64,000 bases of DNA from Vulcanimicrobiota bacterium (lineage in GTDB: Bacteria; Vulcanimicrobiota; Xenobia; Xenobiales; JADMJV01): positions 2,596,891 through 2,660,890 of the forward strand of contig JBFWNU010000001.1 in assembly GCA_050250895.1 (NCBI GenBank), given 5' to 3'. A program made the translations under genes and the position numbers. Below, piece by piece: positions 576 to 4,076 of this stretch. The notes under the pieces are model-generated. The model made no database searches. It saw only the letters and a program-made list of their open reading frames with translations, and was not told the origin of the DNA. Each line of letters opens with the position of its first letter. The stretch's first letter is position 1.

Positions 576-604
576 TTGACAAGAAATATTTGCAGTGGTA
601 TAGT
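576..604 (+). promoter_or_regulatory. Sigma70-type promoter for the tRNA-like RNA
   Basis: TTGACA (576-581), 17 nt spacer, TATAGT (599-604), with extended -10 TG. Confidence 0.85.
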
Positions 605-610
605 GTGGTT

Positions 611-753
611 ATCGCGCCCTCACCGGTCGACCTTACATACTAACTGACTGTTAATCAGAAGGTTGCGGGTTCGAGTCCCGTCTTCTCCGCCAACTTGGAG
701 AAGTAGCTCAATTGGTAGAGCATCGTATACCACGGTCCATCAACTTGCGCGAA
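611..753 (+). ncRNA. Circularly permuted tRNA-Asn(GTT)-like RNA (Y RNA/YrlA-like)
   Basis: Order is anticodon arm CTGA-CTGTTAA-TCAG (644-658), T arm GCGGG-TTCGAGT-CCCGT (665-681), acceptor 3' strand CTTCTCC-G-CCA (682-692), linker ACTT, acceptor 5' strand GGAGAAG (697-703), D arm GCTC-AATTGGTA-GAGC (706-721); flanks pair (TCGCGC/GCGCGA, GACC/GGTC, ATAC/GTAT). Confidence 0.85.
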
Positions 754-757
754 TCAG

Positions 758-783
758 AAGCCCGGCTGCTAGCCGGGCTTTTT
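758..783 (+). terminator. Intrinsic terminator of the tRNA-like RNA
   Basis: AAGCCCGGCT-GCT-AGCCGGGCTT followed by a T run. Confidence 0.85.
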
Positions 784-809
784 GGTTTTACCTCGTCTGG
801 TTGGTGACC

Positions 810-1193
810 AGGGCCATCACCCCGCCGGCGTCGGTCATGCAGAGGCTGCGCGAGCATCGGATCCGCCAGCTCGAGACGCGCTTGGCCTTCGCCGGCACCT
901 ACGTCGACCACGGCTTCGGTTTCACCACGCGCACCGGGGCGCCGCTCCATGAGAGCAACGTTCAGAAAGCGTTTCGGCGGGTTTGCAAGCGGGCCGTGCT
1001 AGCCCCGGTGCGACTCTACACACTCCGGCATACCTGCGCCACCCTGATGCTGCTCCGCCGGGTGCCGCCGAAAATCGTTTCGGAGTGGCTCGGCCACGCC
1101 AGCATCACGATCACGCTGGATGTCTACTCCCACGTCCTGCCCAGTATGCGGCAGGAGGCGGCGGCTGAGCTGGAGGCTACCGGCCTGTTTTAG
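810..1193 (+). pseudogene. Tyrosine recombinase/integrase, C-terminal remnant
   Basis: YTLRHTCATL...LGHASITITLDVYSHVLP (xxLRH, LGH and catalytic Tyr motifs); N-terminal domains absent. Confidence 0.85.
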
Positions 1194-2419: not shown

Positions 2420-2872
2420 TTAGAAGACCCAGTTCTGCTCTTTGATCATCTCCAAGCAAGTAATGGCCGTGACGCCGTGTTGACGGCACAGCACAGGTAT
2501 TTTTGGGCGATCCGCTGAGCCCCTTCGGCGCTCCTGGGTGACAACTTTAAAGCCCATCTCCTTAGCGTAGGCTACGACATGGGGATCGGCTTCGTTCTCG
2601 TGACCGACGACGAGCCCGGGATACTTGTTGATGATCTCTCGGACAATGTTCTCGACTTTGGCGTTGGTCGACATCACCATTTGGCTGTGCATGTCTACCC
2701 ACTTCTTAAGGTGATCGTCCTTTCGGCCCAACTCAATATGAACCGCCTTCACGATGTGGAAGCGCCCTTGATTCACAAGGTTCTGGACCTGGGTCCAGAA
2801 CTGGGGAAAATTCTGATGAGGATAGAGATCGTTTTCGGCGGTGATCAGTGCCGAAGCATCGACGCTATACAC
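2420..2872 (-). CDS. DUF4411-family PIN-like protein
   Basis: MYSVDASALI...FPQFW...ADPHVVAYAK...VVTQE...KIPVLC motifs; GTG start overlaps the upstream stop. Confidence 0.8.
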   Translation of the reverse strand: MYSVDASALITAENDLYPHQNFPQFWTQVQNLVNQGRFHIVKAVHIELGRKDDHLKKWVDMHSQMVMSTNAKVENIVREIINKYPGLVVGHENEADPHVVAYAKEMGFKVVTQERRRGSADRPKIPVLCRQHGVTAITCLEMIKEQNWVF

Positions 2873-4076
2873 TCCAAGCTCCCTTCTTCTCGAGCAGTTG
2901 TCGCATCTCACTGAAATGCTGGACCTTTGCCCCGAGGTACCCAGAGGCGCTCGAGAGAGTGATGGTTCTGGAGTCGAGAGCGTCGAAAACCAGTCGAGAG
3001 TAGGCGACGCCGTTGTAGGCGACTTTCCGCACGGCGTATCTCGGGCCACCTTCGCTTTCAGCAAGGTTCTGTCGGTGCTCACGGCGTTGGGCCCTATACT
3101 GGCTAACCTTGCGGCCGAATTCAGCTTGGGTCATTCGATGGTGGTCGAGCAGCCTTCTAACGATGACATCGCGACTAACGGAGAAACGATTCGCAACCGA
3201 CTTTATAACTTCGTCGGGCCAGCGATTAGCATCGTCATGGGCATTGACCTCCTCGTCCCTTTCTAGAACGCTCCAAGGCACCAGCAACTCAGCGGCAAAC
3301 GCGTTGCAATAGACCTCAATCTCTCTTTGCTCGGGGGGGAGCCTGGAGTTGTCGGTGGCTTCGGCGTGCAACCCGGACACTCTCATTAGGACGTGGCCCA
3401 ACTCGTGGGCCATCGAAAACAGACGGCCCAATGGAGGGTCTTGGGTATTCACAGCGATGGTGGGTAGAGGTGTTTCTGCAATACAGACGCCTCTAAAAAC
3501 ATCGAGGTCGATTTCAGGGATCTGAAAAACCAAGAGCCCAGCATCCTCAAGAGCCCTCGTCCATAGCGAGACCGCTTCGTATTGGCCTCTGCACTTAAGT
3601 TGGCTCTCGAGAGTTAGTCCGAGGCGGGTGCGAATTTCTCCGGTAACCCGCGGAATCTCCGCCGGACTCGAACTTATGATCTCTATGTCACCAAGAAGAA
3701 AGTCGGGTGGTTCTTCCTGCAATTCCTCGTAGAGTTCCAGTGCTGTCCGCCGTCGATTTCGGATTTCACGTAGAGCAAAACGTAACTTCGGGGGATAGTC
3801 TTGAATCACACCGGGTAACGTGCGAAAGTCCGTCACCCCAGGGTCTTCGATTGGAGGTTTTTCGAGATAAAAGAGGCCGATGGGTCGGTCGAAGACATGG
3901 GCAGCCTTGGTCAACTGATTAAAGGACGGACGAAGCTCACCAGCCTCGAACGCCCTCAGTCGTTCCGGCTTGACCCCGACCTTGGCCGAGGCCTGCTCGA
4001 TGGTATAGCCAGCCGTCTCCCTAGCCCAGGTTAAGAGGGCCGGTGTGATCAGAGCTTCCACCTTTTCTTTAGCCAC
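2865..4076 (-). CDS. XRE-HTH / ImmA-IrrE family metallopeptidase
   Basis: N-terminal HTH (LTWARETAGYTIEQAS...), HELGH zinc motif, EVYCNAFAAELLVP. Confidence 0.9.
   Translation of the reverse strand: MAKEKVEALITPALLTWARETAGYTIEQASAKVGVKPERLRAFEAGELRPSFNQLTKAAHVFDRPIGLFYLEKPPIEDPGVTDFRTLPGVIQDYPPKLRFALREIRNRRRTALELYEELQEEPPDFLLGDIEIISSSPAEIPRVTGEIRTRLGLTLESQLKCRGQYEAVSLWTRALEDAGLLVFQIPEIDLDVFRGVCIAETPLPTIAVNTQDPPLGRLFSMAHELGHVLMRVSGLHAEATDNSRLPPEQREIEVYCNAFAAELLVPWSVLERDEEVNAHDDANRWPDEVIKSVANRFSVSRDVIVRRLLDHHRMTQAEFGRKVSQYRAQRREHRQNLAESEGGPRYAVRKVAYNGVAYSRLVFDALDSRTITLSSASGYLGAKVQHFSEMRQLLEKKGAWSV

Follow-up and report, generated by a model that had tools for sequence, protein, structure and literature searches.

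A YrlA-type Y RNA gene with a tRNA-Asn-like core in a Vulcanimicrobiota bacterium and its probable link to a divergent Ro60-like system

Introduction

The closest described relatives of the gene analysed here are the bacterial Y RNAs of the YrlA kind. According to Chen et al. 2014 (PMC4201824), these RNAs are organised as a 5' motif, a YUAY sequence, a V stem-loop, and T, AS (acceptor) and D elements, and a Levitt pair between positions 15 and 48 covaries. The same study shows that RNase P cleaves the YrlA of M. smegmatis, whose AS has 7 bp, both in vitro and in vivo, and that this RNA bears CCA. The YrlA of S. Typhimurium is described, in the preprint of Wang et al. (10.1101/312249), as being without an anticodon loop or a free CCA; the preprint also cites Sim and Wolin 2018 for the idea that YrlA derives from dimeric tRNA transcripts.

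Here, we analyse an RNA gene found in a stretch of 64,000 nt of a Vulcanimicrobiota bacterium (GCA_050250895.1, contig JBFWNU010000001.1, positions 2,596,891-2,660,890, forward strand). We call this stretch the window, and positions given without a prefix are counted from its first letter. A first-pass annotation, made from the letters of the window, had read the gene either as a circularly permuted tRNA-Asn or as an orphan Y RNA. We find that the gene belongs with the YrlA-type Y RNAs, so that its core biology is known. The more interesting result lies around it, in an unannotated Ro60-like protein family and in the arrays of Y RNAs that accompany it.

Results

Organisation of the gene

The gene spans 576-782, and an RNA body of about 140 nt (612-752) lies between its promoter and its terminator (Table 1). 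The first-pass annotation had claimed these three elements and a tRNA 3' half that precedes the corresponding 5' half across an ACTT linker; the elements are all present where it placed them and the order of the halves is confirmed in the sequence. From 5' to 3', the tRNA-like parts are a V (anticodon-like) arm, a T arm, a closed acceptor hairpin with CCA, and a D arm. The closing stem of the RNA begins 8-9 nt after the end of the -10 element, and a promoter scan of positions 1-2000 gave 3 promoter-like sites for 0.5 expected. The fold of a 181-nt region has a z of -3.8, and none of 200 shuffles was equally stable. A C-terminal fragment of an integrase starts 4 nt 3' of the terminator and is followed by an XRE/M78 gene.

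Table 1. Features of the RNA gene, in positions of the window.
Feature	Positions	Strand	Details
Sigma-70-type promoter	576-604	+	TTGACA, 17-nt spacer with TG extension, TATAGT; 11/12 match to the consensus
P1 closing stem, 5' strand	612-617	+	Pairs with 747-752
Conserved internal loop, 5' side	618-624	+	Motif CGCGCCCYNAC is 613-623; kept in 52 aligned members; presumed protein-binding module
P2 helix, 5' strand	625-632	+	Pairs with 734-741, with one C.C mismatch
UUAC (the YUAY of YrlA) and P3 5' strand AUAC	633-640	+	P3 pairs with 725-728; part of the conserved TACAYAC motif
V stem-loop ("anticodon arm" of the first-pass annotation)	644-658	+	4-bp stem, 7-nt loop CUGUUAA
Variable-loop-like linker AAGGUU	659-664	+	U664-A711 possible as the 15-48 Levitt pair
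T arm	665-681	+	5 bp, loop UUCGAGU; in Rfam YrlA and tRNA alignments; 100% of cells paired in the family
AS, closed acceptor hairpin	682-703	+	7-bp stem, 682-688 with 697-703; 8-nt loop
AS loop	689-696	+	Discriminator G689, CCA 690-692, ACUU 693-696
U8-A9-like UA and D arm	704-721	+	D arm 706-721; 4 bp, loop AAUUGGUA
3' strands	725-752	+	P3 725-728, P2 734-741, conserved ACUU loop side 742-746, P1 747-752
Intrinsic terminator	756-782	+	12-bp stem, 3-nt loop, T run

The cloverleaf of the rejoined halves

ARAGORN detects 0 tRNAs and no tmRNA in the native window. When 697-723 and 644-692 are rejoined computationally, it calls a 76-nt tRNA-Asn(GTT) with a 7/7 acceptor stem, and the cloverleaf announced by the first-pass annotation is thereby borne out. 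The partners of the tertiary interactions of tRNAs, i.e., U8-A14, 15-48, and G18/G19 with the T loop, can be read directly in the sequence. The Rfam tRNA model has a partial match to the native sequence that falls under its threshold (22.9 bits for a threshold of 29), and tmRNA_permuted matches with 14.4 bits. The same rearrangement was applied to other RNAs of the family described below: ARAGORN calls a tRNA for 14 of 15 circularised cores, with assorted anticodons, which makes the cloverleaf a trait of the family and not of a single gene.

The genome has one canonical tRNA-Asn gene (C2:413437-413511). Its stems differ throughout from those of the rejoined halves, and the RNA gene is therefore not a remnant of the host tRNA-Asn. 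By BLAST, the RNA gene is itself single-copy in its genome. We searched the machinery and the signals that a permuted tRNA would use. The tRNA-splicing endonuclease (PF01974) is absent from the genome, which is 99.6% complete, and the same search was positive in the 4 archaea used as controls. Both the folds and a direct reading of the sequence show flanks without a bulge-helix-bulge; they form P3, P2 and P1, and both strands have unpaired bases where the 4-bp P3 stops at one and the same side. The genome does have RtcB ligase genes, away from the genes of the Ro60-like proteins described below. Among the genes that the first-pass annotation had named as informative, rtcB and the single canonical tRNA-Asn are thus found in the genome, and TROVE, as defined by Pfam, is not.

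Similarity to YrlA

The Rfam YrlA model (RF02553), also proposed for comparison in the first-pass annotation, does match the RNA, if partially: the alignment covers T-AS-D (model positions 24-84, with high posterior probabilities) and its score, 38.8 bits (E 2.9e-7), is below the gathering score of 69. To place this value, one can look at similar RNAs elsewhere. We scanned a genome collection for CTGTTAA with a T loop and a D arm and obtained at least 120 matches, mostly tandem tRNA-Asn pairs of Streptomyces; because it is saturated by these pairs, the scan is uninformative on the total distribution. It nonetheless includes at least 10 YrlA-like RNAs, from Actinomycetota, Bacillota, Bacteroidota and Pseudomonadota, in which the acceptor hairpin is closed, a D arm is missing upstream and the V loop is identical to CUGUUAA. 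TROVE genes are present in all five tested genomes holding such RNAs; in the cases with comparable coordinates (L239 and L179), only a few hundred bases separate the gene and the RNA. The YrlA-like RNAs of these TROVE genomes (L205, L167, L216, L239, L179) also fail to reach the Rfam gathering score (0/5), so that the Rfam model is a narrow one and missing this threshold is weak counter-evidence. We also looked for the permuted-tRNA pattern in viral contigs: among the 80 matches listed of at least 120, only tandem phage tRNAs were left after a filter on acceptor complementarity.

These comparisons bear on the arm that had been taken for an anticodon arm. The first-pass annotation stated that described Y RNA models lack such an arm; YrlA has its V stem-loop at that very place, and the loop CUGUUAA recurs unchanged in the at least 10 RNAs mentioned above. 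Its novelty does not stand either, given that the V arm is described for YrlA in the literature and is family-wide here. Within a YrlA subfamily, the CUGUUAA "Asn anticodon loop" is conserved as a motif of the V loop, and it is not evidence of decoding.

Conservation in a related species and in metagenomes

The RNA copy is conserved between two species. When the 215-nt region was compared by BLAST with 61 related genomes, it had one true ortholog, in a genome of the same genus (G001), with 85% identity. The other matches running from T arm to D arm in these relatives are tandem tRNA-Asp/tRNA-Phe arrays or ordinary tRNAs. The similarity between the two genes extends from the closing stem to its partner, the promoter and downstream regions diverge, and the genomic contexts are different. 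A promoter-like site (TTGATA-17-TATCAT) lies in G001 at the same distance from the RNA as in our genome. The V arm and the 5' half of the T arm are identical in the two RNAs. In the acceptor stem of G001, 3 pairs have changed on both sides and the CCA is retained; the discriminator has gone from G to A, one base of the AS loop is lost, and an A.A occupies the 27-43 position. Its closing module is shorter by 7 nt on the 3' side of the conserved loop, and this paralog may therefore have relaxed protein binding.

Short contigs from 3 metagenome runs span the junction between the 3' half, the linker and the 5' half, which shows that the gene is not a product of assembly. One of them (X1) is identical across 624-788, and the others (X2 and X3) have a single difference in the RNA body (695 T>C). 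The strain variants seen within the terminator hairpin are in the stem (763 C>T) and in the loop (770 T>C). The remaining DNA contigs matched in the metagenome runs are mostly unrelated tRNAs, and no RNA run was among the sequencing runs listed as carrying the gene.

An RNA family with covarying structure

A first covariance model, built with the RNA gene and its G001 ortholog, identified full-length members in 14 of the 61 related genomes, and we checked the shared modules by eye. The members have in common CGCGCCCYNAC...TACAYAC on the 5' side and RACUUGCGCG on the 3' side; P1, CGCGCCCYNAC, TACAYAC and ACUUG are all kept in the RNA gene. Across 15 members, 96.1% of the cells are paired and double changes are found at 20 of 30 pairs, including covariation at 7/7 pairs of AS (100% of cells paired) and 4/4 pairs of V, although these counts are biased towards the structure of the model, to which the alignments were fitted. 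We kept the model-based alignment; MAFFT misplaced the 3' end of the homolog from one relative (G041). As controls, none of 500 shuffles reached this level of pairing, and structures slid along the alignment have 33-50% of pairing. Covariation was the check that the first-pass annotation had put forward for the closing stem, and it is indeed observed there: P1 has compensatory changes at 4 of 6 pairs, with 97.8% of cells paired.

Separate folds of the joined flanks resolve the closing module into P1, an internal loop conserved in sequence on both strands, a covarying P2 and a short P3. In such folds of the 15 members, P2 varies in sequence and covaries among relatives. This separates the two words that the first-pass annotation had singled out in the flanks. 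The word CTTG lies in the conserved ACUUG of the family. The word GTCGA, in contrast, is inside P2 (GUCGAC, 626-631) and is not a conserved motif, because the sequence of this helix differs among relatives; the pattern GNCGAAN0-1G, the presumed Ro60 contact, is not matched.

The V element is usually made of a 4-bp stem and a 7-nt loop in the 52 aligned members, with a varying "anticodon". Most V loops have U at position 2 and a purine at position 6, and in this they are anticodon-loop-like. The loop CUGUUAA is present in 4 of the 52; one member that adjoins the protein gene described below (L352) has an arm and a linker identical to those of the RNA gene, and another (L278) has an identical arm. 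An NCCA at the start of the AS loop is found in 5 of the 52 members, all with 7-bp stems, in the relatives' genomes and unlinked to the protein gene. There are also 5 of the 52 with 5-bp AS stems closed by GNRA tetraloops. The genome that carries the RNA gene has further members: two sister RNAs in tandem (C1:2531714-2532026), a non-permuted one (C1:1894740-1894855), and two minis of 62-63 nt that consist of the closing module alone, one of them with a promoter-like site at the usual distance.

A probable divergent relative of Ro60

Pfam TROVE (PF05731) has no match in the 99.6% complete genome of the RNA gene or in G001, and is present in 7 of the 61 relatives. Searches with tblastn using the Ro60 proteins of two relatives gave a best E of 0.96 in our genome. 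Two weak matches of these searches fall within C1:1584196-1585608, which encodes one of the paralogs presented below. One of the TROVE-positive relatives (G041) has Y-like RNAs clustered directly upstream of its TROVE gene, and the first RNA of this cluster has 5' and 3' modules like those of our RNA gene.

The conserved neighbour of the family RNAs is a protein of 476 aa. It has a weak match to VWA_2 as its only Pfam match, none to Pfam TROVE, none in NCBIfam and no sequence match in PDB. Its AlphaFold model (pLDDT 85.5) predicts a helical-repeat ring domain followed by a vWA domain, a fold similar to that of solved Ro60 structures. The 12 best matches of the model to PDB, obtained with Foldseek, are all Ro60, Rsr or TROVE proteins and extend over the full length (E from 4e-12 to 2e-9, TM 0.57-0.70). 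In the ESM Atlas it matches TROVE/vWA_Ro60 clusters at TM 0.72-0.77 and also clusters dominated by phages. An alignment of profiles (hhalign) with the TROVE proteins of six relatives gives a probability of 98.3% and an E of 1.2e-14 over 405 columns, and the MIDAS motif DxSxS is invariant across 30 homologs. The predicted structure and the comparison of profiles, at 13-17% identity, point to a divergent relative of Ro60.

Our genome encodes four paralogs of this protein, whose genes start at C1:2532547, C1:2534820, C1:1584196 and C6:105155. It is thus not without Ro60, since it has four divergent Ro60-like proteins that Pfam does not see, and the RNA can be called an orphan, as in the first-pass annotation, with respect to Pfam TROVE only. 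A Pfam scan of the genes beside three of the four paralogs (with one neighbour of C1:2532547 left out) revealed no informative partner, be it RtcB, PNPase or another. The protein is present in 25 of the 61 relatives, including 14/14 of those that hold the RNA. The family (about 477 aa) has 2431 matches at E <= 1e-3 among 8000 scored candidates; the sources named among the matches listed are Armatimonadetes/Chthonomonadaceae, cyanobacteria and one Pyrinomonadaceae MAG.

Genomic coupling of the RNA and the protein

The RNA family is genomically coupled to the Ro60-like protein. We searched 80 metagenome loci encoding the protein, several of which are duplicates of each other, with a model of 15 sequences. 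The 203 matches obtained at E <= 0.01 are spread over 67 of the 80 loci and lie without exception on the strand of the protein, 195 of them upstream of its ORF and the other 8 downstream. In nine of the 13 loci lacking a match, the DNA upstream is shorter than 500 nt. The RNAs form arrays, with up to six or more per locus. Some members of the arrays exceed the Rfam tRNA threshold, and their TACAYAC is the 5' strand of an acceptor-like stem.

The same organisation is found in our genome, where the two tandem sister RNAs are about 500 nt upstream of a paralog (C1:2532547-2533974), on the same strand. For the RNA gene, the distance to the nearest Ro60-like gene is about 61-65 kb. Genomes with the protein commonly contain unlinked copies of the RNA, whereas no such copy was verified in a protein-free genome. 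The partial match to Rfam YrlA, the V-T-AS-D order and the location of the family beside Ro60-like genes side with the Y-RNA-like option among the readings of the first-pass annotation.

Discussion

A probable Y RNA of a Ro60-like system

We conclude that the gene probably encodes an unlinked, self-transcribed YrlA-type Y RNA of a divergent Ro60-like system. The closing module (P1, the conserved loop, P2 and P3) carries the tRNA-like domain V-T-AS-D. By analogy with the Y RNAs of D. radiodurans and S. Typhimurium, this module may bind the Ro60-like ring, and the tRNA-like domain could be a handle for a partner that recognises tRNAs or degrades RNA.

The acceptor hairpin allows a further step. 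Because its 7 bp enclose an encoded discriminator and CCA, the RNA is a plausible substrate of RNase P, and the example of the M. smegmatis YrlA suggests a similar cleavage here. The predicted site lies between 696 and 697; trimming of the ACUU after such a cut would leave the RNA in two pieces, with a 3' end at the CCA. Such a role of the CCA would not be family-wide, as the NCCA loop is found in just 5/52 members. One may go beyond this and imagine that the two-piece RNA, bound by the Ro60-like protein, is a mimic of tRNA-Asn whose CCA is aminoacylated or otherwise used, which we regard as quite improbable. If this were true, a bacterial RNP would present a tRNA body that can be charged, and it would belong to a large unannotated Ro60-like system in whose gene arrays non-permuted tRNA-like RNAs occur as well.

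Alternative explanations

The gene could be a stand-alone tRNA mimic that works without a Ro60-like protein, e.g., as a decoy or sponge that captures enzymes or toxins directed at tRNAs with GUN anticodon loops or at the tRNA elbow, or as a mimic of uncharged tRNA that binds a sensor. Its distance from the Ro60-like genes and its own promoter and terminator would fit such a role, but unlinked copies are common where the protein exists and the protein is present in all 14 of the 14 genomes that hold the RNA. The 7-nt V loop contains U-G-U, which is what tRNA-guanine transglycosylase recognises in a loop of this length. In the G001 ortholog, part of the closing-module loop is lost and the tRNA-like domain is intact, in line with a mimic; our copy, however, retains the whole set of closing-module elements (P1, CGCGCCCYNAC, TACAYAC, ACUUG). 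We consider this explanation unlikely.

It is highly improbable that the gene specifies a working permuted or split tRNA-Asn, in which the ACUU linker would be cut, perhaps with re-ligation of 723 to 644, to give a chargeable or two-piece molecule with a role in translation or akin to that of tmRNA. The ARAGORN call on the rejoined halves, with its 7/7 acceptor stem, G73 and CCA, is generic, being obtained for 14 of 15 family cores, and the genome already has a canonical tRNA-Asn. RtcB ligase genes are available for joining, but no splicing endonuclease was found by a search that succeeds in archaea, and the flanks have no bulge-helix-bulge. In G001, the CCA persists in spite of the changes in the surrounding stem, whereas the discriminator is A and position 27-43 has A.A. 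A point in favour is that the M. smegmatis YrlA has CCA in vivo after cleavage by RNase P (PMC4201824). Finally, the CUGUUAA arm is kept in RNAs beside Ro60-like and TROVE genes, and the V arm is a conserved trait of the family and not a captured tRNA-Asn. The permuted tRNA of the first-pass annotation thus does not survive these comparisons.

A functionless, decaying relic, left either by two tandem tRNAs or by a Y RNA array that a mobile element has carried along (as the integrase fragment 4 nt past the terminator, the XRE/M78 gene after it, and the other context of the G001 ortholog might suggest), is very unlikely indeed, because the RNA body is conserved in two species with compensated acceptor pairs and the same promoter distance between diverged flanks, the gene is nearly unchanged in contigs of three metagenome runs, and every module of the family is intact.

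Implications

With our preferred reading, a Y RNA of a Ro60-like system, the biology of the RNA itself is known at its core, and the new points concern what surrounds it. The widespread family of about 477 aa would be a relative of Ro60 missed by both Pfam TROVE and NCBIfam. Surveys that rely on the annotation of TROVE, as that of Chen et al. 2014 does, would miss it, because Pfam TROVE is blind to this family. In the literature on YrlA and on bacterial Y RNAs and Ro60 that we consulted, which consists mostly of abstracts, there is no mention of a TROVE-negative Ro60-like family or of arrays of Y RNAs; the 254-species tables of Chen et al. 2014 could bear on this point. The arrays of permuted and non-permuted RNAs and the unlinked copies with their own promoters broaden the known range of bacterial Ro60/Y RNA systems. 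The members that combine an anticodon-loop-like V with an encoded NCCA agree with the proposal that YrlA arose from tandem tRNAs, and they are natural substrates for testing the cleavage of Y RNAs by RNase P.

Comparison with known systems

Several known systems share part of this architecture. The two-piece tmRNA is circularly permuted, like our RNA gene, and the cut of a linker would likewise free a CCA end, but the RNA gene has no reading frame for a tag and no pseudoknots. In the permuted tRNAs of Cyanidioschyzon merolae and of archaea, the 3' half also comes first and rejoining the halves gives a cloverleaf. Such genes, known from C. merolae and some archaea, need a bulge-helix-bulge and a splicing endonuclease, and pass through a circular intermediate. 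The RNA gene differs from them in that the genome has no gene for the endonuclease, there is no canonical bulge-helix-bulge, and the layout recurs in dozens of RNAs linked to Ro60-like genes.

Tandem tRNAs, such as the tRNA-Asn pairs of Streptomyces, present the same succession of T arm, acceptor 3' strand, (CCA), spacer, acceptor 5' strand and D arm. In the RNA gene, by contrast, the first half is not preceded by a D arm, the second is not followed by an anticodon arm or a T arm, and the flanks are the closing module of a Y RNA. This module is what the gene shares with Yrn1 of D. radiodurans and with metazoan Y RNAs: the ends pair into a stem with a conserved, interrupted helix, and the partner is presumed to be a Ro60-type ring. 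Vertebrate Y RNAs have an ACUUG-like word on their 3' strand. We know of no tRNA-like domain in the metazoan Y RNAs, and that of Yrn1 has its parts in the orientation opposite to that of the RNA gene.

YrlA remains the closest system. The RNA gene departs from it by scoring below the gathering threshold of RF02553, by a closing module with CGCGCCCYNAC / RACUUGCGCG instead of GNCGAAN0-1G, and by a discriminator and CCA wholly encoded in the AS loop. It is unlinked from the Ro60-like gene, with a promoter and a terminator of its own, whereas YrlA is expected within about 4 kb of a Ro60 gene and on the same strand, and the candidate Ro60-like partner of the RNA gene, unlike that of YrlA, is negative for Pfam TROVE. 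What the two have in common is the architecture itself: a closing stem between the 5' and 3' ends that carries a tRNA-like domain in the order V-T-AS-D, a YUAY ahead of V, near-invariant T and D arms, and a possible 15-48 pair.

Ro60-like proteins and the wider RNA family

The genome encodes four paralogs of the Ro60-like protein (~476 aa), all of them outside the window. The protein family is matched by neither Pfam TROVE nor NCBIfam, and its modelled fold appears to resemble that of Ro60, i.e., a helical ring and a vWA domain. It is a large family, with 2431 matches at E <= 1e-3 among the 8000 candidates scored. The sources named among the matches listed are Armatimonadetes/Chthonomonadaceae, cyanobacteria and one Pyrinomonadaceae MAG, and a search of the ESM Atlas also found phage-dominated clusters. 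In the region upstream of the two sister Y RNAs (L317:200-1600 of the extracted own-genome locus; G000:C1:2529700-2531100), long open frames overlap on both strands and would encode repetitive sequences with a high content of Pro, Arg, Gly and Ala; it looks highly repetitive and G+C-rich.

Metagenome loci encoding the Ro60-like protein (L322-L401) carry arrays of Y-like RNAs, up to six or more, upstream of its gene. In some array members, the enclosed tRNA-like body is not permuted (D, anticodon arm, T) and its score exceeds the Rfam tRNA threshold. In these members, the conserved TACAYAC/GUAUGAA forms an acceptor-like stem, and CCA is absent. A non-permuted member also occurs in the genome studied here, as do two mini RNAs, both consisting of the closing module alone (P1, conserved loop, P2, TACACAC), with the tRNA-like domain absent; a promoter-like site lies 8 nt upstream of the one on contig C1.

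Coordinates of family members and neighbouring features (C1, C4 and C6, contigs of the genome G000; L376, a metagenome locus)
Feature	Location	Strand	Remark
Ro60-like paralog 1	G000:C1:2532547-2533974		
Ro60-like paralog 2	G000:C1:2534820-2536232		
Ro60-like paralog 3	G000:C1:1584196-1585608	-	
Ro60-like paralog 4	G000:C6:105155-106561		
Mini RNA	C1:3292878-3292939	-	62-63 nt
Mini RNA	C4:33180-33242	-	62-63 nt
Non-permuted member	C1:1894740-1894855		own genome
Y-like RNA array	L376:1244-2440		example
Tyrosine integrase C-terminal fragment	window 786-1193	+	Phage_integrase model positions 92-169 of 172
XRE-HTH/Peptidase_M78 gene	window 2865-4076	-	after integrase fragment
16S-23S-5S rRNA operon	window 34159-39169		complete

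Genomic context of the RNA gene

ARAGORN found zero tRNA genes in the 16S-23S spacer of the window's rRNA operon. Tandem tRNA-Asn genes spaced by 5-7 nt were retrieved by a pattern scan of genome contigs at L151, L154, L156 and, among the matches listed, about 40 more Streptomyces/Kitasatospora loci.

In a same-genus relative, the ortholog of the Y RNA gene (L002, G001:C98) adjoins a radical-SAM/SPASM-like gene. The counterpart of the latter in our genome (C1:660865-661998) is about 1.9 Mb from the Y RNA gene, so the RNA gene or its surroundings relocated. The integrase fragment starts 4 nt past the terminator of the Y RNA gene and, together with the XRE-HTH/Peptidase_M78 gene, looks like a decayed integrated element adjoining this tRNA-like gene. 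A whole-genome search found no second copy of the 3' end of the Y RNA elsewhere. Islands adjoin tRNA genes, and the apparent decayed element beside the tRNA-like Y RNA gene has a similar arrangement.
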